From NCBI GenBank assembly GCA_001782035.1, contig MFNL01000001.1, forward strand, positions 2,643-66,642: a stretch of 64,000 bases of DNA, written 5' to 3'. The notes below the pieces were generated by a model. The model ran no database searches and was not told the origin of the DNA. It worked only from the letters and a program-made list of their open reading frames with translations. The position numbers were made by a program, and so were the translations under genes. Shown here piece after piece: positions 14,045 to 61,630 of this stretch (positions are counted from its first letter, which is position 1; each line of letters opens with the position of its first letter). Origin of the DNA: Candidatus Levybacteria bacterium RIFCSPHIGHO2_01_FULL_37_17 (GTDB lineage Bacteria; Patescibacteriota; Microgenomatia; Levybacterales; UBA12049).

Positions 14045-15772
14045 CTACTTCTTTTTATACTGATTTTCATAGAGTCTTTTAATTTCACTAACCTGCGTTG
14101 CATCCTCTGCGCTCTTATCTTTACCTCGAAAAGAGACCAGTCGTGGAAATCTTAGCGCAAAACCTAACTCACTTTCTGTTTTACCAGCTGTGTGTAAAGG
14201 AGAGCGAGTTATTTCATCGGCCAAAACTTCTATTACAATTTCTGGTGCAATCCAAACAGATGGAACAATAAGACTATTTACTCGAGCTGGTTTATGATCT
14301 ACCTTTATTTTATCTGCTCTCTTGTGGATTTCTTTCCACTCCTCATCTGTTAACCCCGTGCCAATTCTTGAAATTGAAACGAATTCGTCTTTGTCCTTTT
14401 CGTAAACTCCAACCAAAAGTGCCCCTGCTCCGAAAGCAGTTCGCTTGCCGCGCCCGGCAATATAGCCTAGTATCACGCAATCAATTGTGTCGGATAACTC
14501 CCCATCGGAGTGTCTTTTTAACTTTACCCAATTAAAGTTGCGGCCACCTGCCTCATACGGGCTTTGCAGCTTCTTAACTACCAAACCTTCCAAACCTTTT
14601 GAAATAGCGTCTTCAAGAAGAATTGAAAGCTCTTTTGGATCTCCAACTGTCTGATTTTTGGTACGAATCAAAACTCCGTCCTCTTTTATGGTTTCTTTAA
14701 GTATTTTGATGCGCTCTGTTAATGGTTTATCTAAAAGCTGCTTACCATCTTTATATAAAATGTCAAAAACAAATGCCTTTAGGGGAAGTTTAATCGCAGC
14801 TTCCTCGATTCCATGTTTTCTTCGCCTTTTGGTAGTCTCTTGAAAGGGCAAGAATTCTTCGGAATCAGGATTATAAGCAAGAGCCTCGGTGTCTAATATT
14901 GCCGTTTTTGCTTTCACCTGTGAAAGTGCTCCTTTAATGAGCTCCGGAAACATATGCGTCATCTCCTCTAAATTTCTTGAAAACATCCGTACTGTATCCC
15001 CGTCTTTATGGATTTGAACCCGAAAGCCATCATATTTATACTGAACGTCAACTTGGCCCATTTTTTCAATTACCTTTTCCGCTGTCGGAAGGCGTTCACA
15101 AAGTTCAGATCTTATTGGAGAACCTACTCTTACTTGCAGTTTTTCAACTGACCCTAGCCCTTTTTCCCACAAAGTTTTAGCAATCAGGCCTAAATCCGAA
15201 GTCCTGTTGTACGCTCCTTCAAGAAGTTTTCTCTTGGATTTGTCTCCCAATTTTGCTGTAGCTAGTGCATCAAGAATTGTAGGATCCCCAATTCCGAGTC
15301 TCGTGTTTCCAAGCGGAATTCTTACAAGATGCTTTGCCGATACTGCATCCACTTTTTTTAGTAATCCAGAAAGAAGCGCTTGTCTTTTTTCAACTGTCCC
15401 CTCACCCTTTGTTTTTGCAATCTCCCTTAAAGTCTCAAAAGCTTCCGATACTGTTAAGTTAGAGCTCTTTGAGGTTTTGGCAAGCTCATATGCAGTTTTA
15501 CCCATGTCCCCCAATTTGTTAAACAAACTTAGCACTTTTTCTTTATTAGAACCGTACGCGTTTGCAAGTGCTGCTGCAACGCTTTTTTCAGCCATCCCAA
15601 TTTCGGTTGCTTCAAAAAATGGGGCAATTCTTCCTTGAATTAAATAAACTATTTTTTCAATTTCAGAAGCCGGTGTTTCTTTAAAAAGTTGGGACAAAAT
15701 TTCTATTAAAGAAAGCCGCGAAGACGTTTCTTCAAGTTTTTCTAAATATTGTGTAAATTTACTAAATTTCAT
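14045..15772 (-). CDS. lig: ATP-dependent DNA ligase (archaeal/eukaryotic LigI type)
   Basis: KYDGFRVQIH adenylation motif I (KxDG), full ligase I domain order, 575 aa. Confidence 0.85.
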   Translation of the reverse strand: MKFSKFTQYLEKLEETSSRLSLIEILSQLFKETPASEIEKIVYLIQGRIAPFFEATEIGMAEKSVAAALANAYGSNKEKVLSLFNKLGDMGKTAYELAKTSKSSNLTVSEAFETLREIAKTKGEGTVEKRQALLSGLLKKVDAVSAKHLVRIPLGNTRLGIGDPTILDALATAKLGDKSKRKLLEGAYNRTSDLGLIAKTLWEKGLGSVEKLQVRVGSPIRSELCERLPTAEKVIEKMGQVDVQYKYDGFRVQIHKDGDTVRMFSRNLEEMTHMFPELIKGALSQVKAKTAILDTEALAYNPDSEEFLPFQETTKRRRKHGIEEAAIKLPLKAFVFDILYKDGKQLLDKPLTERIKILKETIKEDGVLIRTKNQTVGDPKELSILLEDAISKGLEGLVVKKLQSPYEAGGRNFNWVKLKRHSDGELSDTIDCVILGYIAGRGKRTAFGAGALLVGVYEKDKDEFVSISRIGTGLTDEEWKEIHKRADKIKVDHKPARVNSLIVPSVWIAPEIVIEVLADEITRSPLHTAGKTESELGFALRFPRLVSFRGKDKSAEDATQVSEIKRLYENQYKKK

Positions 15773-15773
15773 A

Positions 15774-16835
15774 TTATGCCATTATATACTTTGCGCCTTT
15801 TGTAACCCCATGTTTTTTAATTATTCCAACTTTTAGTAGTGCTTTGAGCTCGTTTAAAATTGTGTCCTCGGAAATCATGGGAAACAAGCTTTCAAAAGCT
15901 TGATTCTGCAAATATCCCACTTTTTGGATATATTCTATGATTTTAAGCTGCCTAGGGGTTAGCAAAATTGGTGACCCACCTAACTTCTCTTTGAGCTTCG
16001 CATCAATTGAAATTGTTTCTACTTTTTCCCTTATTTTTAATAGTTCGTATGATAGGCCCAGCGTATAGTATTCAAGCCATTTTGTTAAATCGCCCTCTGA
16101 TTTTTCAACACTTTGCAAAGCTTCGTAATACTTAAGAGCATCTTTGTCAAAATATTCTTCCAAAGAGAAAAAGCGTCGAATGTCATATCCTTCCAAAAAT
16201 AATATTAGGGTTGCAAAAGCGCGAGCCACTCTTCCATTTCCATCCAAGAAGGGATGAATTCTTACGAATTCGTAATGAACAATTCCAGACTCCAAAACCG
16301 GATGAATATCCTGTTCTTCTGAGCTTTCTGTAAACTCCAATAGATCTTTAATTTGGAATGAAACAGCAACTGCCATTGGGGGCCTAAATGAAATTTCTCC
16401 GGTTTGAGAGTTTTTAACAACCACCTGGGTTTTTCTGTACACTCCGCATTGCGCTTCCGGCAAAATTTTATTAACCGTCATTTTATGAAGTTCCTTAATT
16501 AAATCTTGATCTATTTTTACTTCTGCATCCTGCATTCTTAAATTTTCTATGTACCCCAGTACTTTTCTATAATTTATAACCTCCTGTACATCTCTTTCGC
16601 GTGCTGCAACATTCTGCCCCATCAAAACTTTTTCCGCCTCTGTAAAATTAAGTTCGTTTCCCTCGATATGGGTTCCGTAATGAACACTTCGAACAAGTGC
16701 GTCTTCTCTAAATTCCTTTTCAAAATAGGGCAAAAGAGGTGCGTGGTCTATTATTTCTTTGGATGCTTCGATGCTTCCAATATTTTTGAGGATCTGGTTG
16801 CTAATATAAAATTTAGGCTTGTACATGCGTAACAA
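15774..16835 (-). CDS. fic: Fic-family protein (AMPylation-type) with C-terminal winged-helix
   Basis: HPFLDGNGRVARAF is the complete Fic motif HxFx(D/E)GNGRxxR. It ends 1 nt before the ligase start. Confidence 0.8.
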   Translation of the reverse strand: MLRMYKPKFYISNQILKNIGSIEASKEIIDHAPLLPYFEKEFREDALVRSVHYGTHIEGNELNFTEAEKVLMGQNVAARERDVQEVINYRKVLGYIENLRMQDAEVKIDQDLIKELHKMTVNKILPEAQCGVYRKTQVVVKNSQTGEISFRPPMAVAVSFQIKDLLEFTESSEEQDIHPVLESGIVHYEFVRIHPFLDGNGRVARAFATLILFLEGYDIRRFFSLEEYFDKDALKYYEALQSVEKSEGDLTKWLEYYTLGLSYELLKIREKVETISIDAKLKEKLGGSPILLTPRQLKIIEYIQKVGYLQNQAFESLFPMISEDTILNELKALLKVGIIKKHGVTKGAKYIMA

Positions 16836-30323: not shown

Positions 30324-30366
30324 TGAGGCTAATTATACTTATATTGAGGGCCTTAAGCAAGAAATG

Positions 30367-30438
30367 TACCAGGGGTGGGGATCGAACCCACGACCGCAGG
30401 GATATGAATCCTGTGCTCTACCACTGAGCTACCCTGGC
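30367..30438 (-). tRNA. tRNA-Met (anticodon CAU), elongator-like
   Basis: Cloverleaf read by eye: acceptor GCCAGGG/CCCTGGT (G1:U72), D-arm GCTCAGTGGTAGAGC, anticodon loop TTCATAT, T-arm GTGGGTTCGATCCCCAC; CCA not encoded. Confidence 0.75.
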
Positions 30439-30497
30439 GCGAGTCTATTTTAACAGTTGTTATAAACGAGGTCAAATGTTATAATTTATGCTCAACG

Positions 30498-30566
30498 CGC
30501 GGGGTAGTGTACAGTGCACGTGAGGCTCATAATCTCACAGGCTAGGCGCAACTCCTAGCCCCGCAA
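30498..30566 (+). tRNA. divergent initiator-like tRNA (anticodon CAU; C1xA72; noncanonical T- and D-loops); possibly functional tRNA-fMet or pseudogene
   Basis: Acceptor CGCGGGG...CCCCGCAA identical to E. coli tRNA-fMet ends, anticodon loop CTCATAA. T-loop is CGCAACT (no TTC) and the D-arm is 3 nt short; all four stems pair. Confidence 0.45.
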
Positions 30567-30571
30567 CAAAA

Positions 30572-31767: not shown

Positions 31768-32628
31768 ATGAAACAAGTAAGCCTCCGCTCTGCCCTCGAG
31801 GAGTTTAAAAATTTTCTTAAAAACAACCAGAAAAGCAACTCAACAATAGTTGCATATGGTAAGGATATCGACCAGCTTTTAAGCTTTCTGGAAGGCCTGG
31901 GAAGGGCTGAAATAAGCCAAGTTAGCCGAGAGGATTTGGAAGGATTTTTAGCCAAACTTTCCAAGGAAGGATATACTCCAAAGTCAGTTTCCCGAAAAAT
32001 AAACTCAATTAGGACTTTTTATAGATTTCTTAAGGTTTCGGAATATATAGACGAGGACCCCTCGCTTTTAGTTTCCCACCCTAAATACGAGCTTGCACCG
32101 CCTAGAATTTTAACTCCAACAGAATATAGAGCATTGCGGGATGCTGCAAGATCGGACGGCCGAATGTTTGCAATAATCGAGCTTTTACTTCAAACGGGAA
32201 TTAGAATTGGAGAGCTTGCAAATTTAAGGCTATCTGACGTTGGAAAAGACACATTGCACATACTTCCCTTTGAAAAACACGAGGAAAGAACTATTGCTTT
32301 AAATAAAAGAGCTCAAGAAGCGTTGCAAAGATATATGACGTTGCGGCCAAAGGTGGTAGATGATCATTTGTTTGTTACCAAGAGCGGAAAGCCGTTTTTG
32401 ATTAGAAATATTAGAACCGCGGTAGAAAGATACTTTAGACTTGCAGAAATTCAAGCTGCAAAAGTTAATGATCTAAGGCATACTTTTGTAGCCCACCACT
32501 TAAAACACGGGGTCTCGCTGCAAGTATTGAGTAAAACGCTTGGCCACAAAAGGCTTTCTACAACCGAAAGATATCTTCAATACGTGCCCGAACGAGGCAA
32601 AGATACCTCGGTACTCACTGAACTTTAA
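31768..32628 (+). CDS. tyrosine recombinase XerC/XerD-like
   Basis: N-terminal SAM-like core-binding domain; catalytic R..HxxR..Y (LRHTFVAHHL...RLSTTERYLQY). Confidence 0.8.
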   Translation: MKQVSLRSALEEFKNFLKNNQKSNSTIVAYGKDIDQLLSFLEGLGRAEISQVSREDLEGFLAKLSKEGYTPKSVSRKINSIRTFYRFLKVSEYIDEDPSLLVSHPKYELAPPRILTPTEYRALRDAARSDGRMFAIIELLLQTGIRIGELANLRLSDVGKDTLHILPFEKHEERTIALNKRAQEALQRYMTLRPKVVDDHLFVTKSGKPFLIRNIRTAVERYFRLAEIQAAKVNDLRHTFVAHHLKHGVSLQVLSKTLGHKRLSTTERYLQYVPERGKDTSVLTEL

Positions 32629-33005
32629 TGACAGAACAAACATCAAAAACTCCGCGTATCGAATACTTACGTTCAGTTTTTGAATCAAATGTCCTCAGTA
32701 TAGATTTATCTGATCTAGTTGGAACAGTTGCTGATTCAATAATGGAAGAGGATTTAGAATCGCTTGAATTTGTCGCTACCAGAGCTAAAGAATGGTCCGA
32801 TCCATTTAAGGATGTACTAGGTAAACCTCAGGATCACGGATATGTAATTTATGAGGAGGACGATGTTTTTAAAAGCCACCTTATGGGAGTAATCCAAGGC
32901 ATAGGATTTGTCGCAGACAATGTTCTTCAGAAACTAAAATTGGGCGAGAGACCCATAAGACAGCAAACCTTTGGCTGGAATTATAGAGGCGAAGCGGTTA
33001 AATAA
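32628..33005 (+). CDS. hypothetical protein
   Basis: 125 aa; ATG overlaps xer stop as TAATG, implying coupling. Confidence 0.35.
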   Translation: MTEQTSKTPRIEYLRSVFESNVLSIDLSDLVGTVADSIMEEDLESLEFVATRAKEWSDPFKDVLGKPQDHGYVIYEEDDVFKSHLMGVIQGIGFVADNVLQKLKLGERPIRQQTFGWNYRGEAVK

Positions 33006-33006
33006 G

Positions 33007-33078
33007 TGCTCCCGCTTGGATTCGAACCAAGGACATCTACTTTATAAGAGTAGCGCTCTACCACTGAGCTACAGGAGC
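33007..33078 (-). tRNA. tRNA-Ile (anticodon UAU)
   Basis: Acceptor GCTCCTG/CGGGAGC, D-arm GCTCAGTGGTAGAGC, anticodon stem CTACT/AGTAG with loop CTTATAA, T-arm CTTGGTTCGAATCCAAG. Confidence 0.7.
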
Positions 33079-33093: not shown

Positions 33094-35463
33094 TCAGAGG
33101 CGGGCGCGTTGGGCAATAATAGGCTCCAATTTATTTACAGGAACTCCATACTTTATTCTTGAAAGTTCTCTTATTAACTCTGCAACCCTGTTATTCTCTG
33201 CCTGTTTTTCCTTAGTCATATCTCTTGTTAAATCCATAGAAAAAGATGTAACAGGCTCGTTATTAACTATTGTTTTAACATAGGCATTATAAACATCAAC
33301 ATTTATTAAATCCGCCTCGGTAAAGGTAGGCTGGAATTCGTGCTGTAAATAATTAGCGTCCGTTACTCCGACTCTAAATGCAGCTAGTGTTCCAACATTT
33401 CCAAAAATTGCGTTTTTAACTTCCTCATCCATCTGCCCTATAAACTGGTTTGCAACTATTAAATTGAGCCTGTATTTTCTTGCTTCAGACAAAATCTGGG
33501 CAAAATCAGGGGTGGCAAAATTTTGAAACTCGTCTACGTAAAGGTAAAAATCACGCCTTTGGTCTTCCGGAACATCTTGCCTGCTCATTGCAGCAACTAA
33601 AATTTTGGGGACTAAAACTAGTCCTAAAAAGCTCGCATTTTCTTCGCCTATTTTTCCTTTTGACAAAGAAACGAGTAATATTTTACCTTCATCCATTGCT
33701 TTTCTAAAATCAAACGCGCTTTTGCTCTGCCCAATTATGTTTCTCATCATTTTGTTGGTAACAAATCGGCCGAATTTGGAGACAATATAGTCCAAGGTTT
33801 CCGATTTGTGGAAGTCTGAAGTTTGAGCAATCTGGTCTGTCCAGTAGCGCCGCACAATTGGATCGGCAACTTTAGGCAGAAGTTCTTGTACAAAAGACGA
33901 GTCGGTTAAGGCTCGGACTACTTCGATGAACGTGTTGCCCGGCTCGCTCATTACGGTTAACATTGCATTTCTTATAGCATGCTCAAAGCGGGGGCCTATT
34001 ATTCCGGTTTTGTTGGGATCATAAAGCTTATACATGAGTCCTACAATTGAGCTTACAATGTAGTGTTTTTCCTGCTCGGTTTGTGCCTCTAGCATGTTTA
34101 ATCCAAGCGGCATTTCGGTGTCTGAGGGATCAAACAAAATAACATCTTCCGCTCGCTCGGGGGGGATTAGGGGCAGCAGTTTATCAATAGTATCATGCGG
34201 GTCTATAAAGCAGACTCCTTCGCCATTTTTTATATCCTGCAAAATCATGTCTTTTAAAAACTCTGATTTCCCAGTTCCTGTTTTCCCTATTACATACATG
34301 TGTCTTCTTCTGTCGTCTTTTTGAATGTAAACGGGTTTTGCCATACCTCTGTAAGTGCTCATTCCAAGATAAAGGCCTTTGTCGGGAATTTGCACTGGAG
34401 CTGGCGCTTTTTTGGCATTTAGCCAGAAAATGTGGGGCGTCTGGATTGTCTTATTTGGGTAATGGTAGAGCCCGGCAAGCTCCTCACTTGTTAAAACGGA
34501 AAAGTTTCCGGTTGCAGGAAAGTAACGGTATATAAAATCAGTAATAAAGCTTCCTTTTAAAAATTGCTTTTGTTTTGTAAATTCATTAAATGATGCAAAC
34601 TGGTCAAACGCAGACTCCAAGTTATGCAAATGAGCCTCGGCTGCTTCCTTGGTAGACGAAGAAACAACAAGTCTTATTACTGTGTAAAACCCAGGTTTCC
34701 CGATTTTTTGCTCTACTGCTTCAAGCTCTTTTGGGTCTGATGAGTATTTTGCTGTTTCAGGATTTGATTCTCTTTTTTTTGTATCTGCAATGTAAGTACG
34801 GCCTAATTTGCTCCACTTTGAATCTGCTCCCGATATTAAAATCTGGATTGCCGCGCCTTCCCCCACGCTCATTTTTGCCAAAACCGAAGTAATTGAAGAG
34901 AGAGGATCCACAGCAAATTCTTTGTAAAATTTAAGTGGTTTATAATTGCTGTCCTTAAGCTTAAGAGTCTTATAGGCAACGCTTCCGGACTCTGAGAAAA
35001 TGTTGTACTCGTTGCCTAAAATATAGCCTTCCTTGGAATAGCGGGAAGTTGTTTCTTCAACTACTCTGATTTCAGCATCTGGGTATGAGGCATTTATCTG
35101 TTTTTCGACCATATCCTTGTATTTGTTGGGGGTGTAGATGAAAAAACGGATATCGCCGGGCATTCCTACAATTTCAAAAGAAATATGAGGCCTATACTTT
35201 AGAAATTGTAGCCTTCCGCTTGATTTTATTCCTGCAAAAGCGCTGAAAAGCTGCTCTGCCGCATCTATTTTTATTTCATTATCCCGAGGAAGCGCCACTT
35301 GAAGAAGCGTTGAGTCAAGGGAGTGTTTTTCCCGCTCTCTGTTTCGATACCAAATTGCCCAAATGTAAGCAAAGCCAGCCAAAGCTGCGGTTATCAAAGC
35401 AAGAGCTCCTGCAGTTATTACTAATGCAAATATCAAATTTGTAAGTGCGACTAAAGGATTCAT
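33094..35463 (-). CDS. membrane-anchored HerA/FtsK/VirD4(TraG)-superfamily P-loop ATPase
   Basis: N-terminal ~35-aa hydrophobic anchor, Walker A VIGKTGTGKSEF, Walker B FYLYVDEFQNF (DEF as in FtsK/VirD4), 789 aa. Confidence 0.55.
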   Translation of the reverse strand: MNPLVALTNLIFALVITAGALALITAALAGFAYIWAIWYRNREREKHSLDSTLLQVALPRDNEIKIDAAEQLFSAFAGIKSSGRLQFLKYRPHISFEIVGMPGDIRFFIYTPNKYKDMVEKQINASYPDAEIRVVEETTSRYSKEGYILGNEYNIFSESGSVAYKTLKLKDSNYKPLKFYKEFAVDPLSSITSVLAKMSVGEGAAIQILISGADSKWSKLGRTYIADTKKRESNPETAKYSSDPKELEAVEQKIGKPGFYTVIRLVVSSSTKEAAEAHLHNLESAFDQFASFNEFTKQKQFLKGSFITDFIYRYFPATGNFSVLTSEELAGLYHYPNKTIQTPHIFWLNAKKAPAPVQIPDKGLYLGMSTYRGMAKPVYIQKDDRRRHMYVIGKTGTGKSEFLKDMILQDIKNGEGVCFIDPHDTIDKLLPLIPPERAEDVILFDPSDTEMPLGLNMLEAQTEQEKHYIVSSIVGLMYKLYDPNKTGIIGPRFEHAIRNAMLTVMSEPGNTFIEVVRALTDSSFVQELLPKVADPIVRRYWTDQIAQTSDFHKSETLDYIVSKFGRFVTNKMMRNIIGQSKSAFDFRKAMDEGKILLVSLSKGKIGEENASFLGLVLVPKILVAAMSRQDVPEDQRRDFYLYVDEFQNFATPDFAQILSEARKYRLNLIVANQFIGQMDEEVKNAIFGNVGTLAAFRVGVTDANYLQHEFQPTFTEADLINVDVYNAYVKTIVNNEPVTSFSMDLTRDMTKEKQAENNRVAELIRELSRIKYGVPVNKLEPIIAQRARL

Positions 35464-35966
35464 TGAGTAAGTGTTTTTTTAGGTTTGAATAAATTCATGA
35501 ACTGGTAAATTTTGTGGACTAAAGTGGCTAAAAAAGCTTTCGATGGAGCTGTATAAACTCCCTCGTCTCCATGTTCTTTTACATCCAGATTTACTTGTTT
35601 TTGTGACTCTTTCATAATCCTTTGTGCTTCCTCGTCACTCATTGGAAGAGTAACGTTTGCTCCAGTATCTGCTCTTAAGGGAATTTCTGAGGGGGCGTGT
35701 TTTACTCCGATTTGATCGTGTTTCTCATCAAGCTCTGCCTGCTCGGTATGGGATTTTATTCCAATATCTTTTAGCTCTTGCTCCACGCTTGGTGCGGTTT
35801 CGGAAGAGACAGACTGCTGAATGTAATCGGAAACCGGTCTTTCCACTTCTTTAGCAGTACTCGAAACTGGATAGGATTGTTGAACTTGTGGCTGAACCTG
35901 CGTATTCTGATCAGCAGTGTTATCTTGAGAGCTATTTATCTGTTGTTTTATTTTTGAATCATCCAT
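35460..35966 (-). CDS. acidic, Gln-rich low-complexity protein
   Basis: 168 aa, QVQPQVQQ and D/E-rich; stop overlaps the ATPase start by 4 nt. Confidence 0.35.
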   Translation of the reverse strand: MDDSKIKQQINSSQDNTADQNTQVQPQVQQSYPVSSTAKEVERPVSDYIQQSVSSETAPSVEQELKDIGIKSHTEQAELDEKHDQIGVKHAPSEIPLRADTGANVTLPMSDEEAQRIMKESQKQVNLDVKEHGDEGVYTAPSKAFLATLVHKIYQFMNLFKPKKTLTQ

Positions 35967-36023
35967 TTGAATTTATTCTATCACAAAAATGGGGGTGGTC
36001 TTTATAAAAACTTTACAAAATGA

Positions 36024-36164
36024 CTAGGCTTTGGAGCTTCCGCAAACCGGACAATTTGTAAGCTTACCACTTGCAACGAGCTCGTATTCCAAATTATCTG
36101 GTTCCCACCCGCAATTTCTGCACTTAATTTTATAACAAATTTCGCAAGTTTTCTCTTTTTCCAT
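36024..36164 (-). CDS. 46-aa zinc-ribbon protein (below track cutoff)
   Basis: MEKEKTCEICYKIKCRNCGW...CPVCGSSKA: CxxC-x4-CxxC...CxxC. Starts 2 nt after the stop of the 388-aa gene. Confidence 0.35.
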   Translation of the reverse strand: MEKEKTCEICYKIKCRNCGWEPDNLEYELVASGKLTNCPVCGSSKA

Positions 36165-36165
36165 A

Positions 36166-37332
36166 TTAATTTAGTTTAGAATAAGGCGCGCTCTTTTTAC
36201 AATTAGGACAACTTATTGTACCGCCTCCAATTTCTGCCTCAACCTGTTTATTACAAAATGGGCATGTACAGCAAAGCTTGGTTTGCTCAATATCTTTTTT
36301 TTGACCAAACTGGCCGACGCTGTATGGAGCGCCTATTGTCTCTACTCCACCCATCATATTGAATCCCCCGGAAATACCAGGACATGGCCCGTTAGCGATT
36401 CTAGGCGTAATAAGGCCGATAATCATCGCTCTTTTTTCTACGTCTTCTCTTGATGAGAATGATGCCCATTTAATTAAGTTTTGTAATTCTTTTGTATCTC
36501 CACTTAATACAACGGCTAAAGCGTTATCAGATTCATTTAAAACCGCATTGTACTTTACCCTGTGGGTGAAAAAATCATAAGGATTTTCAACAAGAGAGTT
36601 AATATAGCTAGATATTACAGGCGCAATAATTCTATTTATAATTTCGAGTTTCTCTTTTTCTAAGGCATTAACTCCTTTATTTAAATACTTTTGAACATCG
36701 TCCGAAGTCTCGAAAACATCAGCTTCAATTGGGTTTTTCAGGAAATCTGAGGCTGTTTTATGTCCTTCGCAATCGGAAAACGGCTTTAGTTTTTCTTTGT
36801 ACTCCTCAAGCGTGAGTGTAGAGAGATATCTGTTTAGCTCGATAAATCTTCTACCATCTTCACCTACTTTTAGCTCGTAAACGTCAAAAAAATTATTTGT
36901 ATAATCGGAGCCCTCTTCGCCTTTTGATGAGACCGATATTCTTTTTGCTCCAGGTTTTGCTTCCTTTTTTGTTAGTTCCTTTTGGATTAATATAGCACCC
37001 GACAGCTCTGCTTCTTCTCTCTCAAAATCTAAGGGGTTTCCATATTCCTTCCTGTATTCAACTCCTGTTCTTATCATCTCTTCCATTGACTGATCCAAGC
37101 CCTTTGCGACCATTGTGTCTTCAACAATTTCAAAGCGGGTGGTCGATTTAATTACTTCTACACGCTCCCCGACATACGCTTCTAACTGTCTTCTTGTATA
37201 AGACTTAAGCTTTTCCCGCTCCGATGGAGGAAGCAAATGATAGCTCTTATAGTCTCTTTCATCAAAAGATGGATTGTAGACTAACCTTCTTTCTTCCCCA
37301 AAATTTGGCTTATATGCTCTTCTTTCTATCAT
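36166..37332 (-). CDS. hypothetical protein with C-terminal zinc ribbon
   Basis: 388 aa, soluble, C-terminus CCTCPFCNKQVEAEIGGGTISCPNCKK; 4-nt overlap with upstream PduO-type gene. Confidence 0.45.
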   Translation of the reverse strand: MIERRAYKPNFGEERRLVYNPSFDERDYKSYHLLPPSEREKLKSYTRRQLEAYVGERVEVIKSTTRFEIVEDTMVAKGLDQSMEEMIRTGVEYRKEYGNPLDFEREEAELSGAILIQKELTKKEAKPGAKRISVSSKGEEGSDYTNNFFDVYELKVGEDGRRFIELNRYLSTLTLEEYKEKLKPFSDCEGHKTASDFLKNPIEADVFETSDDVQKYLNKGVNALEKEKLEIINRIIAPVISSYINSLVENPYDFFTHRVKYNAVLNESDNALAVVLSGDTKELQNLIKWASFSSREDVEKRAMIIGLITPRIANGPCPGISGGFNMMGGVETIGAPYSVGQFGQKKDIEQTKLCCTCPFCNKQVEAEIGGGTISCPNCKKSAPYSKLN

Positions 37333-37874
37333 CTGCTTCTCCAGATAACTTCTTTTTTCTTCTCTTTTTTGTTAACAAGTCTTGCATACACGAACAGAAG
37401 ATCGGAGAGTCTATTTAGATAAATCAATATATCTTTGTTAACGCTTTCCTTTTCACTTAAGGCAACCACTCTTCTTTCTGCTCTTCTTGCTAATGTTCTT
37501 GCAAAATGAAGTTTTGAGCCTGATTTTGACCCAGAAGGAAGAATGAAGTTCTCAAGAACTGGCAGTTTTTTTGATAATGCGTCTATCTCTTGTTCAAAAC
37601 TCTGAACACGAGAAGTTAAAAAATCTGATAGTTTCGTATCTTTATTTTTAGCAATAGATGAAACTGCAGAGCCGATTTCAAACAAATCATTTTGAATACT
37701 AGTCAGCCTTAATCTTAATTTCTTGTCTCTAAGATCGGAAATAACAACTCCTAAGAAACTATTCAACTCATCTATTGTTCCGTATGCTTCTACCCGCAGT
37801 GATGCCTTGGAGACCGTTTTCCCTCCGTATAATGAAGTTTTTCCTTTATCCCCAAACTTTGTATATATAGACAT
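37329..37874 (-). CDS. ATP:cob(I)alamin adenosyltransferase, PduO/MMAB type
   Basis: MSIYTKFGDKGKTSL...RVEAYGTIDELNSFLG matches the PduO-type N-terminal signature; strong SD GAGGAG 7 nt upstream. Confidence 0.8.
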   Translation of the reverse strand: MSIYTKFGDKGKTSLYGGKTVSKASLRVEAYGTIDELNSFLGVVISDLRDKKLRLRLTSIQNDLFEIGSAVSSIAKNKDTKLSDFLTSRVQSFEQEIDALSKKLPVLENFILPSGSKSGSKLHFARTLARRAERRVVALSEKESVNKDILIYLNRLSDLLFVYARLVNKKEKKKEVIWRSR

Positions 37875-37879
37875 AAAAA

Positions 37880-38010
37880 AACTCCTCGTTCCCGAGAAGC
37901 TTAATAATTTCCTGGTCCCGGGAACTGCATAAGGTGGTTTTCCGACTTTACGGTAGCGGCACTGTGGAGGAATTACACCTCGCTTACCCTTTCCTTATTG
38001 ATACTTTTAT
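37880..38010 (-). promoter_or_regulatory. cobalamin (AdoCbl) riboswitch-like leader
   Basis: Minus-strand RNA reads AGGGUAAGC...GGUGUAAUUCC...CCGCUACCGUAA...AGUCGGAAAACCACC, matching GGUGnAAnUCC, the B12 box (CCGCCACUGUAA, 10/12) and AGYCAGGAGACC. Followed by GUUCCCG/CGGGAAC hairpin abutting the SD. Confidence 0.5.
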
Positions 38011-38032: not shown

Positions 38033-40489
38033 TTAACATTCCGAATATCCGCATGCGTAACATTTTTTACAACCTTCTTCATATGCAAGAGATGCTGCCC
38101 CGCAGTCTGGGCAAATATCGTAAAGTCCTGTTTGTACTCCTGCTGCTACGAGCTCTCCTGTTGGACTTGAAGCAAGGGTTAATTGCTCAAGCTTTACAAC
38201 TTCCTGTTTCAGCTCAACTCCAGAATCGGGGGGTAGAATGTGAGATTCTTCTGCTTTAATCGTATTGCCGTTTGTATGTCCGTTTGAAAGACCGTTTCCG
38301 TTTGTTGAGTGGCCATTTATCAAAACATTTTTGTCTTCTACCACTCCGTTAACCCTAAATTCAAAGTGCCTCGACAAAACTTTTGCTACTGCATCAGGCA
38401 GCGAGCGTACCCGGTTTTCTCCAAATCCAACGCTTCTTGCGCCACCTATTCCAATAAGCTGGGCGACAACCTGTCTTACTCTTTCCCTTGGAGAAAGTAG
38501 TCCGTTTAATCTTAGGTTGAGAGATATCATTCTTCCTAAAGCATCTGCCATTGCCGCTACATCGGACCCCGATTTTCCAACTGTTATAAATACTTCGAAG
38601 GGCTCTTTTGAAGTATTGTGGTTAATTGTTATATAAGTTTTGCCAACGGGAGTTTCGGTTCCGTAAGTGACTCCTTCAACCACCATTGGCCTTGGAATAA
38701 CCGGCACTTGTGGGATTTGAACAACTTCTGCTTTAACTTCATCTTTTTTATCTTCTTTTCTTGACAGCACCCCTTCCCTGCTTCCATCTCTCATATAGGT
38801 TATACCTTTAAGCCCACTGTCATATGCCATTGTGTAGAGTTTTTTTACATCCTCTACTGTATGTGCATTTGGCGCATTAACGGTTTTTGAAATTGAACTA
38901 TCAATGTAGTCTTGGGCAACCGCTTGAACTTTGACATGTTCTTCGGGGGTCAAATCATTTGCCGACACAAAAAAGTTAGGTTTTTCTGCGCCTGCATTCT
39001 CTTTTTTCCATTCTTCAAATAGCGGATGGTACATTAAATGCTCACCGAGTCTATCCCGTCTTATAAATTCAAACTCATAAACCGGCTCAACTCCGGATGA
39101 TACTCCCGAAATAAGGGATGTCGTTCCAGTTGGTGCAATAGTTAAAAGGACCGCATTTCTTATTCCTTGTTTGTAGATTTTCTTTCTTATATCCTCCGGC
39201 AGTTTCTGGATATGATATCCTTTTTGATATAAATCTTTCTTGTATTTAGGAAAGCTTCCTTTCTCAATAGCAATATCGGAAGAAGCAATGTAAGCATTGT
39301 CTCTTAATGTTTTGAATATTTTCTCAATTACGGGAAGACTTTCTTCCGAGCCATATTTCATCTTCATTTTTATTAATGCATCGGCAAGCCCTAATATTCC
39401 AAGCCCAGTTCTTCTAATGTCCTTTGCCACTCTTTCATTTTCTTTATAAAAATAGTATGTTTCATCAATTACGTTATCCAAAAATCTCATCGCAACTCTT
39501 ACGTCTTTTCCAAAATTTCCATAATCAAAGACTCCTTTTTTGTTTACATATGCAGCCAAATTCATTGCTCCTAGGTTACATACTGCCCACGGAGAAAGAG
39601 GCTGTTCACCGCAAGGATTTGTGGCAGAAAGCCTCTCGAAATACCAAGTGTTGCTTCTTTTGTTGCTTCTATCCAAAAAGTGAAGTCCCGGCTCGGCAGA
39701 CCTCCAAGCCGCCGTACATATTAAATCCCACAAGTATTTTGCTTTAACAGTTTTATAAACCTTAAGCTTACCGCCTGCTTTTTTCCATTCTTCAACGTCG
39801 CCTTTCCACTTTTTGTCATATTTTTTATCGTCCAAATCAGGGAAAACGAGCTGCCAATCGCCGTCTTTTTTAACAGCGTCCATAAATGCATCTGACACAC
39901 AAACCGAAAGATTTGCTCCGTTTATTTTGCTTAAGTCTTGTTTTACAGTTATAAACTCCTCGATATCCGGATGCCAATCATGAAGCATCAACATCAGGGC
40001 ACCACGTCTACTTCCACCTTGCTGTACAATATCTTTCGTCGCCAAAGAATATAATTCTGCCCAGTTCATCGGACCCGAAGAAAATCCGTTTACTTTTTTT
40101 ACTCTTGCGCCTCGGGGACGCAACGAGGAAAGGTTAAGTCCAACACCACCTGCTCTTGCCATAATTTCAATCATTTGCGTGAGATTTTCCATTATTCCAC
40201 CCCTACTATCCGGAGGGTTTGGAATTACGAAACAATTAAAGTAAGAAACATCATAGCCAGTTCCCGCGCCTGAGAGTATTCGGCCTCCCGGAAGGAACTT
40301 AAAATCATACATTGCTTCAAAAAACTTCTTTTCCCACTTTTTACGGTTCTTTACTTTTTCGACACTGGCAATAGCGCGAGCCACTCTCCTCCACATCTCA
40401 TCAGGAGTTTTTTCCAGAGGATTTCCAGCAGTATCTTTTAATGAATACCTGTCTAAAAATACTTTTTGTCTTACGCCATCTAATTTCAT
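38033..40489 (-). CDS. nrdJ: ribonucleotide reductase class II, adenosylcobalamin-dependent
   Basis: 818 aa; class II RNR active-site region, C-terminal CPDCG...CKKCYACGYSEC redox tail. Confidence 0.9.
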   Translation of the reverse strand: MKLDGVRQKVFLDRYSLKDTAGNPLEKTPDEMWRRVARAIASVEKVKNRKKWEKKFFEAMYDFKFLPGGRILSGAGTGYDVSYFNCFVIPNPPDSRGGIMENLTQMIEIMARAGGVGLNLSSLRPRGARVKKVNGFSSGPMNWAELYSLATKDIVQQGGSRRGALMLMLHDWHPDIEEFITVKQDLSKINGANLSVCVSDAFMDAVKKDGDWQLVFPDLDDKKYDKKWKGDVEEWKKAGGKLKVYKTVKAKYLWDLICTAAWRSAEPGLHFLDRSNKRSNTWYFERLSATNPCGEQPLSPWAVCNLGAMNLAAYVNKKGVFDYGNFGKDVRVAMRFLDNVIDETYYFYKENERVAKDIRRTGLGILGLADALIKMKMKYGSEESLPVIEKIFKTLRDNAYIASSDIAIEKGSFPKYKKDLYQKGYHIQKLPEDIRKKIYKQGIRNAVLLTIAPTGTTSLISGVSSGVEPVYEFEFIRRDRLGEHLMYHPLFEEWKKENAGAEKPNFFVSANDLTPEEHVKVQAVAQDYIDSSISKTVNAPNAHTVEDVKKLYTMAYDSGLKGITYMRDGSREGVLSRKEDKKDEVKAEVVQIPQVPVIPRPMVVEGVTYGTETPVGKTYITINHNTSKEPFEVFITVGKSGSDVAAMADALGRMISLNLRLNGLLSPRERVRQVVAQLIGIGGARSVGFGENRVRSLPDAVAKVLSRHFEFRVNGVVEDKNVLINGHSTNGNGLSNGHTNGNTIKAEESHILPPDSGVELKQEVVKLEQLTLASSPTGELVAAGVQTGLYDICPDCGAASLAYEEGCKKCYACGYSEC

Positions 40490-40501: not shown

Positions 40502-40951
40502 TTAATTGATAAGCCTTTTTACTTCTTTTTCAAAATCTTCAACGTCTACGAAGTTTTTAAACACACTTGAAAATCTTATATAAGCCACTTTGTCTAATTT
40601 TTTAAGTCTTGCTGCTACCATATTGCCTATTTTTTTACTTTCCACTTCAACTCCTGTTTCTCCTCTTAGTTCCATTTCGATATCTGTTACTATTTGCTCT
40701 ATTACATCAAGAGGAATTTTTGTCTTTTCGCAAGAGCGTATTATTCCTCTTTTTAATTTATCTCTATCAAATTGTTCCCGTCTTCCGTCCTTTTTAATTA
40801 CTATTAAATTTATATTTTCAATTCTCTCGTAAGTCGTAAACCTTTTATTGCATTGTCCACACTCGCGTCTTCTTCTTATAGTCTCTAAGTCTTCACTGTC
40901 TCTTGTTTCTACTACTTCTGTATCTGTTAATCCGCAATATGGACACTTCAT
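40502..40951 (-). CDS. nrdR: transcriptional repressor NrdR
   Basis: MKCPYCG...CGQCNKRFTTYE zinc ribbon plus ATP-cone; 12 nt upstream of nrdJ. Confidence 0.9.
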   Translation of the reverse strand: MKCPYCGLTDTEVVETRDSEDLETIRRRRECGQCNKRFTTYERIENINLIVIKKDGRREQFDRDKLKRGIIRSCEKTKIPLDVIEQIVTDIEMELRGETGVEVESKKIGNMVAARLKKLDKVAYIRFSSVFKNFVDVEDFEKEVKRLIN

Positions 40952-50563: not shown

Positions 50564-50996
50564 TTTCTTTAATTTTATCTATTCTTCTTTTATGTCTTTC
50601 TTCATTTGAAAATGGTGTTTCCAAAAATACTTTGACAAGTTCTATTGCTTTTTGTTCATCGACGAATTGCGAACCCAAAGCTAGCAAGTTAGCATCGTTA
50701 TCTTGTCTTGCGAGCTTAACATTCTCTGCACTGAATCCTAAAATTGCTCTAACGTTTTTAAACTTATTTGCGACTATTTCTTCTCCGCTTCCCGATTTAC
50801 CAAAGACTATTGCTTTAGAATCTGGATTCTCTGAAACTTTTTTTGCAGCAACGGAAATAAAATCGGGATAATCGTCGTTGTTGTCTTCTGCGTAATCTCC
50901 GCAATCCTCTATTTCATAACCCTGCTTATAAAGGTAAGCTGCAATTTCTTTCTTTAAAGAAAACCCTGCGTGGTCGGAGGCTAAATAAATCTTCAT
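50550..50996 (-). CDS. rpiB: ribose-5-phosphate isomerase B
   Basis: MKIYLASDHAGFSLK RpiB/LacAB N-terminal signature; 148 aa. Confidence 0.85.
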   Translation of the reverse strand: MKIYLASDHAGFSLKKEIAAYLYKQGYEIEDCGDYAEDNNDDYPDFISVAAKKVSENPDSKAIVFGKSGSGEEIVANKFKNVRAILGFSAENVKLARQDNDANLLALGSQFVDEQKAIELVKVFLETPFSNEERHKRRIDKIKEIENG

Positions 50997-51616
50997 TACT
51001 TACCTATTATAACAAGAGCGTCAGAGGAAAAACCATTGGAAAGGTTTGCGGATGTGCTTCCAACGGTATAGGTAAAACCCAAATCTTTTTTCAAAAGATT
51101 TAGAAATTCACTCTTACCTGATTTAACCAGTATGGATACATTTGCATATTCGAAATTATCGGCATTTCCTGTTCCAACAACATTATATCCAAGGTTTTTT
51201 AACGTATCTGAGCCTTTTGATGCCACCCCTGATTCACCACTTCCGTTTTGAACAGTGACAGAAAGCTCGCTTCTGTCAAGCCCTGTTTGTGTATCCACGG
51301 GGTTGATTGTGGGCTTTGGAGTTGGGGTATTTGTAGGAGTTGGTGTTGGAGAATCACTTGGGGAAGGAATTGATGTTTCAGTGGGAAAAACTGTGGGGGT
51401 TAAAACTTTGGGTTTATCATCTACGCTTTCGTTTGTTGAGCCTAGAATTTTAAAAGCAAAAAATATTAATAAAGCCAAAACGACAAGAGCTAAGTAGATA
51501 AATTTTTTGTTTATCTTTCTTTTGGGCGGGGGGAATGTTGGAACCGACTCAAGCGGTGCTTCTTCCATATCCTGCCTTTCAAAGAGAAGGGTATCAAAAT
51601 TTTTTCCTTTTCGCAA
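50996..51616 (-). CDS. LytR_C-domain membrane protein with Pro/Thr-rich linker
   Basis: TM anchor, SPSDSPTPTPTNTPTPKPT linker. C-terminal VTVQNGSGESGVASK...LGYNVV pattern of the LytR C-terminal domain. Confidence 0.5.
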   Translation of the reverse strand: MRKGKNFDTLLFERQDMEEAPLESVPTFPPPKRKINKKFIYLALVVLALLIFFAFKILGSTNESVDDKPKVLTPTVFPTETSIPSPSDSPTPTPTNTPTPKPTINPVDTQTGLDRSELSVTVQNGSGESGVASKGSDTLKNLGYNVVGTGNADNFEYANVSILVKSGKSEFLNLLKKDLGFTYTVGSTSANLSNGFSSDALVIIGK

Positions 51617-56774: not shown

Positions 56775-56800
56775 CCCCGCATTTAGCAGGGTTTTATTTG
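56775..56800 (-). terminator. rho-independent terminator following tmRNA
   Basis: Minus strand AAAACCCUGCUAAAUGCGGGGUUUUUUAUU: GC stem plus U tract immediately after tmRNA 3' end. Confidence 0.5.
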
Positions 56801-57163
56801 TGGAGATGTCGGGAAGTGATCCCGAGTCCAAGAAGGTATTTTTTCAAACTTCTACAAGCTTATTTTGTTATTTTTTTGATCGCCTTATTCTTTGAAAACA
56901 AACATCCATAAATAAGGTCAAGGTTATAAATTCAAAAGAGTTCTAACCATCTACTCTTTCAATTTCTCGACTAAGTTTATGCCCAAAATGTTTCATCGAG
57001 AAAAAACATTAAGGACAGCTCAACTAGTTAAGCAAAAGCAAAACGAGTTGGAGCGAATGAAGAGTTTCCTCTATCATTTATATTTTTGACTTAGTTTTAC
57101 GACTGTGAGTCTCGTCGGCTTGCAGTTTTTAAAGAACTATCTTGTCGATGCATTTGCATCCCC
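56801..57163 (-). ncRNA. ssrA: tmRNA (ssrA), standard one-piece
   Basis: 5' GGGGATG pairs with 3' CATCTCC (G3:U wobble) + discriminator A; T-arm-like CGGGATCACTTCCCG. Internal tag frame ...NDRGNSSFAPTRFAFA-TAA (stop at 57028-57030). Lies 350 nt from smpB. Confidence 0.7.
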
Positions 57164-59618: not shown

Positions 59619-59712
59619 GGAGAAGTCGCATAGTTTGGTCCATTGCGAGGGTTTGCTAAACCCTTGAGCCTGAATAAGGCTCGCGTGAGTTCGAATCTCA
59701 CCTTCTCCGCCA
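59619..59712 (+). tRNA. tRNA-Ser (anticodon GCU), CCA encoded
   Basis: Acceptor GGAGAAG/CTTCTCC, anticodon stem AGGGT/ACCCT loop TTGCTAA, long variable arm GAGCCTGAATAAGGCTC, T-arm GTGAGTTCGAATCTCAC, GCCA end. Confidence 0.8.
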
Positions 59713-59715
59713 TTC

Positions 59716-60216
59716 ATGCAGATTTTAAAAACAATTCACGAGGATTATCTGCGCTCATTAATGTTTGGACTCCAAGACGGAATTGTTTCTACTACGGGAG
59801 TGGTTATAGGGATTTCAACCGGGGTCGAAAACAAAGCAATAATAATCCTTGCTGCTTTTGTTGCAATAGCTGTTGAGGCTACTTCTATGGCAGCGGGCCA
59901 ATATTCTTCTGAAAAAGCAGTTCATCAAATGGATAAGACCGGAAGGCATACAGATAGTCTTGTTTTAGGAGCAATAATTATGTTTTTTGCGTATCTTTTA
60001 GGAGGAGCTTTCCCAATACTTCCAATTATATTTTTCCCGCAGGAAATATTTAGAATAATCGCTATTATTTCAGCATTTTTTGGTTTATTTTTAATCGGGT
60101 ACTTAAAAGGTCAACTTGTTGAACACAGACCGCTACGTTCTGCGATAGAATTATTTATAATTGGCTCTGTTGCAACAATTGTTGGGGTTGTGGTGGGTTA
60201 CTTGTTTAGAGTTTAG
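59716..60216 (+). CDS. VIT1/CCC1-family (DUF125) membrane protein
   Basis: GLQDGIVSTTGVVIG motif of VIT family, 4-5 TM helices; starts 4 nt after the tRNA. Confidence 0.6.
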   Translation: MQILKTIHEDYLRSLMFGLQDGIVSTTGVVIGISTGVENKAIIILAAFVAIAVEATSMAAGQYSSEKAVHQMDKTGRHTDSLVLGAIIMFFAYLLGGAFPILPIIFFPQEIFRIIAIISAFFGLFLIGYLKGQLVEHRPLRSAIELFIIGSVATIVGVVVGYLFRV

Positions 60217-60217
60217 G

Positions 60218-60301
60218 CGGAAGGTAGAGGATTCGAACCTCTGAGAGCTTTCGCTCACTGGTTTTCAAAACCAGCGCCATGAACCGCTCGGCCAACCTTC
60301 C
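60218..60301 (-). tRNA. tRNA-Ser (anticodon UGA)
   Basis: Acceptor GGAAGGT/ACCTTCC, anticodon stem CTGGT/ACCAG loop TTTGAAA, long variable arm, T-arm GAGGTTCGAATCCTC. Confidence 0.8.
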
Positions 60302-60327
60302 TTGGCTCAATTTTAACATAGGAAAAG

Positions 60328-60747
60328 CTATTTTAGTAGTTTTCGAGCTTCTTTCCAAACCTTTTTATCCGATGGATAAGTTAGTGTTTGTTCAACCTTT
60401 TCTTTTTCTGTCCATTTTACTTGACTCATTTCCCAATCGTGCTTTTTTACGTCCCCTCCGACTGCTTTCATAAGAAAATAATAAACAGTTTTTCTTCTTT
60501 TTTCTTCATCCCAAACATACCAATAAGTTATGGGAGTTAACGCTTTTTCAATTTTTGCCTCAACGCCGGTTTCTTCTTTTACTTCACGTATTGCGGCTTC
60601 TTCTTTGCCCTCGCCTTTTTTATGGTCGCCAATTAGTCCTTTGGGGAAAACCCAACCTTTGTGTCCTGAATGTTGTCCGAGAAGAATATAAATACTTCCA
60701 GCCTCTTTTTTGTGGACTATTCCTCCTGCAGAAAACTCAAATCTCAT
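60328..60747 (-). CDS. NUDIX hydrolase
   Basis: Perfect Nudix box GDHKKGEGKEEAAIREVKEETGV. Confidence 0.75.
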   Translation of the reverse strand: MRFEFSAGGIVHKKEAGSIYILLGQHSGHKGWVFPKGLIGDHKKGEGKEEAAIREVKEETGVEAKIEKALTPITYWYVWDEEKRRKTVYYFLMKAVGGDVKKHDWEMSQVKWTEKEKVEQTLTYPSDKKVWKEARKLLK

Positions 60748-60762
60748 TTATTCCTTTCGTTG

Positions 60763-60853
60763 TGGCGGAGAGGGGGAGATTCGAACTCCCGGTCGTCTTA
60801 CGACGACATTCACTTTCCAAGCGAACGCACTAGACCAGCTATGCGACCTCTCC
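60763..60853 (-). tRNA. tRNA-Ser (anticodon GGA), CCA encoded
   Basis: Acceptor GGAGAGG/CCTCTCC, anticodon stem TTCGC/GTGAA loop TTGGAAA, long variable arm GTCGTCGTAAGACGAC, T-arm GGGAGTTCGAATCTCCC. Confidence 0.8.
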
Positions 60854-60911
60854 TTGGTTTTCAATTATAATTAATGTTGACTTATTTCTCAATCTCTCAT
60901 ACAGTTAAATT

Positions 60912-61433: not shown

Positions 61434-61467
61434 TTTGAGCTCCAAAATGCTATAATTGAAGCCAGGA

Positions 61468-61540
61468 GTGCCCGTAGTTCAATGGATAGAACGCCCGGTT
61501 GCGGACCAGGTGGTTGGAGGTTCGATTCCTCTCGGGCACG
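61468..61540 (+). tRNA. tRNA-Arg (anticodon GCG)
   Basis: Acceptor GTGCCCG/CGGGCAC, D-arm GTTCAATGGATAGAAC, anticodon loop TTGCGGA (one C:A mismatch in stem), T-arm GGAGGTTCGATTCCTCT. Confidence 0.6.
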
Positions 61541-61544
61541 CAAA

Positions 61545-61630
61545 GGAGGGTTCGCATAGCGGCCAATTGCACGAGTTTCGAAAACTCGAGGAGCAATCCT
61601 ACGCAGGTTCGAATCCTGCACCCTCCGCCA
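61545..61630 (+). tRNA. tRNA-Ser (anticodon CGA), CCA encoded
   Basis: Acceptor GGAGGGT/ACCCTCC, anticodon stem CGAGT/ACTCG loop TTCGAAA, long variable arm, T-arm GCAGGTTCGAATCCTGC. Confidence 0.8.

Follow-up and report, generated by a model that had tools for sequence, protein, structure and literature searches.

A class II cobalamin riboswitch and the uncharacterised protein family behind it in a Levybacteria genome

In a 64,000-nucleotide (nt) stretch of the genome of Candidatus Levybacteria bacterium RIFCSPHIGHO2_01_FULL_37_17 (contig MFNL01000001.1; hereafter the window), a leader resembling a cobalamin riboswitch stands at the head of five minus-strand genes. These encode a PduO-type ATP:cob(I)alamin adenosyltransferase, a 388-amino-acid (aa) protein (p388), a 46-aa zinc-ribbon protein (zn46), a 168-aa acidic, Q-rich protein (acid168) and a 789-aa membrane-anchored P-loop ATPase. 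All five open reading frames (ORFs) claimed by a first-pass annotation of this DNA are present in the window. That annotation regarded them as an unprecedented cluster and proposed the zinc-ribbon proteins, together with the ATPase, as candidates for a new cobalamin uptake or processing system. Which of these genes does the riboswitch control, and which are concerned with vitamin B12? On balance, we favour two adjacent, co-directional transcription units, in which pduO, p388 and zn46 are repressed by B12, and acid168 and the ATPase form a separate unit that is not specific to B12.

The riboswitch and its expression platform

The aptamer lies at 37929-37998 of the window, on the minus strand like all features of the cluster described below, and is an AdoCbl-II (class II cobalamin) riboswitch, AdoCbl being adenosylcobalamin. 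When the whole window was scanned against Rfam with cmscan, the full model of RF01689 (AdoCbl-II, 1-81 of 81) was matched with 47.4 bits, E=2.4e-8, against a gathering score of 36.5. This is the single cobalamin riboswitch in 64 kb according to Rfam. The riboswitch-like leader suspected earlier is thus borne out by a covariance-model match above threshold, and the motifs quoted in its favour (GGUGUAAUUCC, CCGCUACCGUAA and AGUCGGAAAACCACC) all fall within the aptamer. With a custom covariance model, R1, the window aptamer scores 79.5 bits.

About 110 related loci were compared in three sets. Loci L001-L005 came from exact-protein look-ups of three p388 homologues. Loci L006-L085 came from a scan for the ATPase, with one genome per GTDB species, and represent Levybacteria, Gottesmanbacteria, Beckwithbacteria and other Microgenomates with ATPases 62-93% identical. 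Loci L086-L110 were obtained in a metagenome scan with a p388 motif (the LCCTCPFC pattern only) and are biased towards that subgroup. A covariance model built from four aptamers detected 52 riboswitches among L001-L085 and a further 16 among L086-L110. Across 50 distinct homologues, in an alignment that was itself fitted to the model, 98.6% of the cells in the four modelled helices were paired, against 28-48% in slid controls. Compensatory (double) changes were found in 10 of the 13 aptamer pairs. None of 500 shuffles reached the observed value.

The expression platform occupies 37875-37928, where an antiterminator hairpin is opposed to a hairpin that acts as terminator and sequesters the Shine-Dalgarno sequence (SD). 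The GUUCCCG (37925-37919)/CGGGAAC (37894-37888) hairpin pointed out previously does abut the SD, GAGGAG at 37887-37882, and the ATG at 37874. A second hairpin of 10 bp with a GGAA loop, AAGCUUCUCG-GGAA-CGAGGAGUUU at 37902-37879, is followed by seven U residues and the AUG, and the SD of the PduO gene forms its 3' arm. The two hairpins overlap and are mutually exclusive, and the second is thermodynamically preferred. The platform is a classical antiterminator/terminator arrangement combined with sequestration of the ribosome binding site.

This design recurs in most of the 37 homologous platforms that were set out: a short hairpin, usually with a CGAGCA loop in the relatives, then a hairpin with GGAG in its 3' arm, five to eight U residues and AUG. 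A strict scan for a hairpin plus U-run flagged 25 of the 37. CCGAG of the first platform hairpin is complementary to CUCGG in the 5' arm of the terminator, a pairing that we read as the probable antiterminator. An L5-L13 kissing loop was sought by eye; the CGAGCA loop is a candidate L13, its complementarity was not established, and no such contact is claimed. The switch is predicted to turn OFF upon cobalamin binding. A search of the literature on cobalamin riboswitches in Patescibacteria or the candidate phyla radiation (CPR) found nothing relevant.

With its match to the full model, conserved core and co-varying helices, the element resembles other class II cobalamin riboswitches (RF01689 AdoCbl-II or 'AdoCbl-variant', clan CL00101), as would its OFF-switch logic and its platform of terminator and SD sequestration. 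It differs from them in usually lying within an operon, at the stop codon of pduO or nrdJ, instead of in a 5' leader, and in having an uncharacterised protein family as its main target. The riboswitch belongs to a known class, and what is new about the operon, as a B12 salvage unit under riboswitch control, is its conserved cargo.

The genes behind the riboswitch

In the window nrdR (40502-40951, identified by Pfam) and nrdJ (38033-40489) lie directly upstream of the riboswitch cluster on the same strand, and the spacer between nrdJ and the PduO gene is 158 nt. The nrdJ product, identified by Pfam, scores 581.7 bits with the NCBIfam equivalog TIGR02504 (NrdJ_Z; cutoff 399.95), which marks it as the AdoCbl-dependent class II ribonucleotide reductase (RNR). 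The 181-aa PduO protein (37329-37874) matches Pfam Cob_adeno_trans (PF01923) with 196 bits and the equivalog TIGR00636 with 206.5 bits (cutoff 108.45). The p388 ORF (36166-37332) overlaps the PduO gene by 4 nt (ATGA, 37329-37332). Next is zn46 (36024-36164), identified as an ORF from its sequence, whose product has a CxxC...CxxCGW...CPxCG, rubredoxin-knuckle-like zinc ribbon. At this junction, TAA-T-ATG, the spacer is 1 nt and not the 2 nt reported previously, and zn46 is translationally coupled to p388. The other couplings were as described: a 57-nt spacer precedes the acid168 ORF (35460-35966), which overlaps the ATPase gene (33094-35463; ORF and Pfam) by another ATGA (35460-35463), and the cluster ends at tRNA-Ile(TAT) (33006-33078). 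The description of the cluster as unprecedented has to be qualified, as dozens of public Microgenomates metagenome-assembled genomes have the identical gene order without annotation.

The aptamer precedes pduO in the window, whereas in most relatives a p388 homologue takes this place. The first gene after the 52 riboswitches belonged to the p388 family in 31 cases and to its remote 'bigB' relatives in 3. It was pduO in 8-9 cases, with a recognised p388 gene directly next in all but L033, and in 5 cases it encoded a DUF4430 protein (PF14478), named the 'transcobalamin-like C-terminal domain' in InterPro; other genes accounted for a few. Among 65 ATPase-centred loci with enough upstream sequence, 36 had both riboswitch and p388, 4 the riboswitch only, 2 p388 only and 23 neither. 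The co-occurrence analysis suggested by the first-pass annotation thus shows p388 homologues to be almost always behind a B12 riboswitch, either directly or with pduO in between. In the p388-centred metagenome scan a riboswitch was found in 16 of 25 loci, the remainder being mostly truncated upstream. In at least 20 related loci a zn46 homologue is found immediately behind p388. The unit conserved in its regulation is the riboswitch followed by p388 (with zn46), and the invariant regulated gene is the p388 family, not pduO.

The position of the riboswitch is also informative. PduO is encoded upstream of it in 37 cases, and in 34 of these the aptamer match begins between -22 and +18 nt from the stop codon of pduO, with p388 as the next gene. 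This leaves no room for a promoter, and the element is thus an intra-operon attenuator. Tandem riboswitches were found in four loci (L004, L034, L036, L073), where one precedes the gene for DUF4430, a CbrT-like protein (see below) or PduO, and the second always precedes p388. Three loci (L100, L101, L108) have stand-alone riboswitch-p388 units between genes of the opposite strand, and L104 has the unit in inverse orientation to the ATPase pair and to pduO-nrdJ alike. In five others (L087, L089, L091, L092, L107) the order is nrdJ-riboswitch-pduO-p388-zn46. Three of these (L089, L092, L107) continue after p388-zn46 with a ComF-family gene, without the ATPase, and L087 and L091 end shortly after zn46. 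The upstream-truncated loci L105 and L106 likewise have a ComF-family gene after zn46 and no ATPase. The ComF-family gene, which combines a double zinc ribbon with a phosphoribosyltransferase, is at 3051-3761 in L089 and at 3667-4377 in L092.

We propose that the first transcription unit (38006-36024) would be a B12-repressed attenuator module, placed either within the nrdR-nrdJ operon or at its end. Binding of cobalamin would cause termination and occlusion of the SD. When cobalamin is low, read-through would permit translation of pduO, p388 and zn46. In relatives with the aptamer at the stop codon, nrdJ and pduO would be made regardless, and p388 only when cobalamin is low.

Possible roles of p388 and zn46

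If p388 and zn46 are B12-regulated, do they take up the vitamin? The first-pass annotation noted that none of the genes resembles BtuCDF, ECF-CbrT (ECF, energy-coupling factor) or BtuM. This is true in the window: p388, zn46 and acid168 have no Pfam or NCBIfam match, hence none to known B12 transporters, a hidden Markov model (HMM) of the CbrT-like family found no match among the window ORFs at E<=10, and a DUF4430 gene is not present. An ORF at 50996-51616 that phmmer suggested as DUF4430 was rejected as a LytR_C protein with a low-complexity match. The lack of such genes does not extend to the relatives, whose riboswitch units carry a CbrT-like S component together with DUF4430.

In ten loci (L004, L020, L036, L055, L062, L063, L068, L073, L079, L085), the riboswitch units also encode DUF4430 and a membrane protein of the DUF6580 family (PF20221, 193 bits). 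When twelve DUF6580 proteins were combined in a profile, a single PDB chain was matched, 6FNP_A, with E=9.4e-7 over 160 residues, and 6FNP is the ECF-CbrT vitamin B12 transporter (PMC5997447). By this match and by its linkage to riboswitches, the DUF6580 protein qualifies as a CbrT-like S component, in the relatives only. The order is riboswitch-large protein-DUF4430-CbrT-like-acid168-ATPase in L055, L062, L068 and L085, and riboswitch-(small membrane ORF)-CbrT-like-large protein in L079. A literature search on DUF6580 found nothing relevant. The presence of a CbrT-like gene and DUF4430 in these riboswitch units indicates that the clade uses a B12 uptake component of conventional type. In their combination of riboswitch, CbrT-like DUF6580, DUF4430 and PduO, the relatives are similar to salvage operons of ECF-CbrT or BtuM with an adenosyltransferase (CbrT: PMC5997447). 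They differ in the extra p388 and zn46 genes, in that no genes for ECF A and T components were seen in the loci, and, in the case of the window, in having neither transporter nor DUF4430 gene.

One locus deserves separate mention. At 3744-6366 of L063 (minus strand) a riboswitch controls a DUF4430 gene, and next comes a gene for a 646-aa protein with an alpha/alpha toroid like that of prenyltransferases and squalene-hopene cyclases. Transcobalamin and intrinsic factor have two domains that the DUF4430 and toroid proteins together resemble.

The p388 protein has no Pfam, NCBIfam, PADLOC or PHROG match and no convincing structural match; neither zn46 nor acid168 is matched in PADLOC. Among 5.8 billion clustered proteins it has 24-37 homologues, all hypothetical, and a profile search of the same proteins added 13 sequences, none of them named. 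The only matches of its A1 profile in the PDB are zinc ribbons of the eL43 type. The protein comprises an N-terminal PAS-like alpha/beta domain, a four-helix bundle, a C-x-G-x-S-G-G loop and a C-terminal C4 zinc ribbon. In the AlphaFold2 model (mean predicted local distance difference test 79.9, predicted template modelling score 0.66), the alpha/beta domain with its five-stranded sheet spans approximately residues 60-171 and the four-helix bundle 226-306, followed by a disordered Gly-rich loop and the zinc ribbon. Invariant in the alignment are E56, R57, E106, A108, E109, G112, S135 and D269, the C317-x-G-x-S-G-G loop and the zinc ribbon CC-x-C-P-F-C...C-P-x-C. Some members have a different ribbon (F-x-CP..C...NQLI.NCQ.CG) and are then without a separate 46-aa gene. 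The Levybacteria-type proteins of 280-530 aa are clearly one family (hhalign 99.8%). Proteins of 615-875 aa occupy the equivalent position in Gottesmanbacteria-type loci and are weakly linked to p388 through their N-terminal ~110 residues; judged by this similarity, their homology to p388 is probable.

No signal peptide or transmembrane segment was found in p388. Since the clade also has a CbrT-like uptake component, an intracellular factor is more likely than a transporter. We give an even chance to the possibility that p388 and zn46 are a cytoplasmic factor of cobalamin limitation, which would serve in capture, processing (reduction or de-ligation) or hand-over of the cofactor to PduO and NrdJ. 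The position of an accessory gene beside a PduO-type adenosyltransferase gene and that of an AdoCbl-dependent client is reminiscent of PduS/PduO or MMAA(MeaB)/MMAB, as an analogy of context only. Neither a flavin or Fe-S reductase domain nor a G-protein domain is present in p388, and it showed no sequence or fold similarity to PduS, MeaB, CblC or CblD. To our knowledge, p388 and zn46 have no counterpart in described B12 regulons. We more tentatively suggest, as something rather less than an even bet, that p388 and the rubredoxin-knuckle-like zn46 form a previously unknown intracellular cobalamin-starvation system of CPR/Microgenomates bacteria, serving PduO and the class II RNR. As regards the zinc-ribbon proteins, the earlier proposal of new cobalamin candidates can be retained, p388 being the conserved riboswitch target and zn46 travelling with it.

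BtuM and CbrT are examples of B12 transporters that first came to notice through the riboswitches of their genes. In the present case, a well-supported cobalamin riboswitch points to a family without annotation, Pfam model or structural relative. Its hosts are ultra-small CPR bacteria, and among the genes seen at these loci the essential RNR is their only evident enzyme that depends on B12. If p388 and zn46 do handle cobalamin, they would be a new component of B12 trafficking and would fill a gap in the making of deoxynucleoside triphosphates from scavenged B12 by episymbiont-like organisms.

A riboswitch that is OFF in the presence of cobalamin might also govern a substitute for the vitamin. 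In other bacteria metE, nrdAB and nrdDG are repressed when B12 is available, and p388 (with zn46) could similarly be a B12-independent back-up that, for example, provides deoxynucleotides through the uptake or scavenging of DNA while NrdJ is short of its cofactor. The placement of an OFF riboswitch inside the nrdJ operon would suit such a role, as would the genes that come after p388-zn46, which encode either the ComF-family protein (L089, L092, L105-L107) or the DNA-translocase-like ATPase. In addition, L060 (428-5536) has a CbrT-like gene, a riboswitch, a 659-aa ORF and then nrdD-nrdG, where B12 may repress the class III RNR. However, the p388 riboswitch unit is shared with the B12 acquisition genes for DUF4430, the CbrT-like protein and PduO, which is the usual signature of salvage. 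Moreover, p388 has no similarity to any protein of nucleotide metabolism or DNA uptake, and the ComF and ATPase genes may simply be the next transcription units. We consider a back-up role unlikely, and less so than the other alternatives to a role of p388 and zn46 in handling cobalamin.

A regulatory role appears more doubtful still. In this case p388 would be a sensor whose PAS-like domain binds a ligand and whose zinc ribbon binds nucleic acid, reprogramming gene expression under B12 starvation. The structural matches behind this assignment are weak and generic, and the protein has no helix-turn-helix or output domain. The invariant acidic, Ser and Cys residues (E56, R57, E106, E109, S135, D269, C317) are more like an active or ligand site.

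The acid168-ATPase pair

In the ATPase, a long hydrophobic helix at the N terminus is combined with a DUF8128 region and a P-loop domain like that of the coupling proteins TrwB and VirD4. It passes the Pfam gathering scores of TrwB_AAD_bind, DUF87 and TraG-D_C, and its sequence matches in the PDB are TrwB and DotL. It thus has the membrane anchor and the TrwB-type nucleotide-binding fold with Walker A of a type IV coupling protein (T4CP). It falls far below the NCBIfam equivalog cutoffs for T4CPs, the best match being SXT_TraD (45.2 bits; cutoff 366) and the rest scoring lower still, and it does not reach the gathering score of Pfam FtsK_SpoIIIE. It differs from T4CPs such as TrwB, VirD4, TraD and DotL in an extra region of ~300 aa (DUF8128), and in being chromosomal, core-like and paired with a small acidic protein, with relatives in Bacillus phages. 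No genes of a type IV secretion system (T4SS) or relaxase were seen near it among the neighbouring ORFs that were scanned; its neighbours in the window are tRNA, XerC, PduO, NrdJ and NrdR, and the related loci that were sampled have genes of RNR, glycolysis and B12 next to it. The first-pass annotation would have regarded its proposal as refuted by an ATPase clearly belonging to a conjugative T4SS elsewhere, and no T4SS genes were seen beside this one. A literature search on DUF8128 found nothing relevant.

Distant full-length homologues of the ATPase are found in large Bacillus myophages (phage G gp156, SPO1 gp27.4 and relatives), with 19-25% identity and 85-90% coverage, and it matches phrog_5156, whose function is not annotated, with E=2e-89. 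A scan of viral contigs for the ATPase found nothing. A role in defence, suggested by weak PADLOC matches to mad8 and HerA, was dropped since the acid168-ATPase pair is core-like and syntenic.

A homologue of acid168 abuts or overlaps the ATPase gene in 69 of 85 loci by iterative search, and in 59 of them it is within 11 nt or overlapping. The relatives share a C-terminal amphipathic motif, P-L-T..E....L....S-I/V-R-W-L-A-E-W-C. acid168 is an obligate partner of the ATPase. In L032, a p388 C-terminal fragment and zn46 are on the opposite strand (15654-16261, minus strand), 6 kb from the ATPase and at the edge of the fetched locus. The ATPase of that lineage (~810 aa) is without an acid168 partner, and the locus is another case of p388 uncoupled from the ATPase.

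The pair also occurs without any B12 genes, for example in L072 and L077, where the RNR is the class III NrdD/NrdG. Elsewhere the gene upstream of it encodes pyruvate kinase, enolase or phosphoglycerate mutase. Other loci with the pair have nothing related to B12, and some of its neighbourhoods are free of RNR genes. Furthermore, an extended -10 promoter element, TGATAGAAT at 35975-35983, ends 8 nt before the acid168 ATG. The motif TGnTAnnAT is found at -20 to -9 in 39 of 64 distinct acid168 upstream regions (61%; expected 0.5%), and in none of 81 ATPase and 40 p388 upstream regions. Across the acid168 homologues of L001-L085 the element is located 15-18 nt ahead of the start codon and ends ~7-9 nt short of it. 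An SD was found before the acid168 start codon in none of the 64 regions, that of the window included. With the element so close to the ATG and no SD, a leaderless transcript is predicted for the acid168/ATPase unit. TGnTAnnAT is also close to the ATG in 13 of 51 XerC genes, and leaderless transcription may be common in this clade.

The second transcription unit (35983-33094) would thus be a separately promoted, probably leaderless operon of acid168 and a membrane-anchored, TrwB-like ATPase of hexameric type. The acid168-ATPase pair is a conserved Microgenomates module whose distribution is independent of B12 genes. The pair is likely to be transcribed independently and to have another translocation function. 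The ATPase is probably only a neighbour and not a B12 gene.

The original proposal included the ATPase, and a single B12-regulated uptake or processing operon of all five genes, with the ATPase as motor or translocon and the zinc-ribbon proteins as accessory factors, has several points in its favour. All five genes run in one direction at close spacing, no terminator was detected ahead of tRNA-Ile, and the window has no CbrT-, BtuM- or BtuCDF-like gene. In addition, the ATPase pair directly follows the riboswitch unit in many Levybacteria and Gottesmanbacteria, and directly follows the CbrT-like gene in L055, L062, L068 and L085. Nevertheless, the pair is unchanged in at least 23 loci that lack riboswitch, PduO or p388, and it carries a conserved extended -10 promoter of its own, with a start of leaderless type that lacks an SD. 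Conversely, in L100, L101, L104, L108, L089 and L092 the riboswitch and p388 either have no ATPase with them or are on the strand opposite to it. Moreover, ATPases of the TrwB/HerA/FtsK type translocate polymers and not vitamins, and homologues of this one occur in Bacillus phages. We thus regard a single operon as improbable, and annotation of the T4CP-like ATPase as a B12 gene should be avoided. That the ATPase, tRNA-Ile and tyrosine recombinase are a degraded integrative conjugative element, with the riboswitch nearby by accident, was rejected on synteny as highly improbable: the T4CP-like ATPase does adjoin a tRNA gene and a Phage_integrase-family gene, but gene order is conserved from GAPDH to DivIC, the ATPases are 62-93% identical, the recombinase is a 286-aa protein of XerC type, and the vicinity showed neither a relaxase gene nor VirB4 or any other gene of a T4SS.

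Several observations weigh against the division into a B12-repressed p388/zn46 unit and an independent ATPase unit. No terminator was detected between the zn46 and acid168 genes, and read-through could, in this genome, bring the ATPase under partial control of the riboswitch. The acid168 promoter is deduced from a motif. Phylogenetically diverse loci keep riboswitch and ATPase adjacent, and function, instead of inherited synteny, could be the reason. With respect to p388, the protein has no recognisable cofactor-binding or catalytic domain. It evolves fast, with 35-45% identity where the ATPase keeps 78%, and its length varies from 280 to ~875 aa, which is unusual for a housekeeping enzyme. 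Its homology to the Gottesmanbacteria-type proteins is weak, with hhalign values of 0.2-59% and E=8e-5 for a four-sequence HMM; jackhmmer gave 1e-23 to 1e-32, after iteration only.

The gene order GAPDH-CoaE-DUF5667-NrdR-RNR-...-ATPase-tRNA-XerC-DivIC is kept in many Levybacteria- and Gottesmanbacteria-type loci. For annotation of this clade, the stop-codon position of the riboswitch and the apparently leaderless promoter are useful rules. The nrdJ ORFs of L007 (461-3919), L008 (430-4008) and L081 (491-3979) encode proteins of 1150-1190 aa, as compared to ~810, and probably contain inteins. In the window, a 125-aa ORF without family match (32628-33005, plus strand) overlaps the XerC stop codon and faces tRNA-Ile. 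Other RNA genes of the window include a tmRNA (56798-57163, minus strand, 109 bits), four tRNA-Ser and one tRNA-Arg clustered at 59619-61630, and two divergent tRNA-Met genes at 30366-30567.

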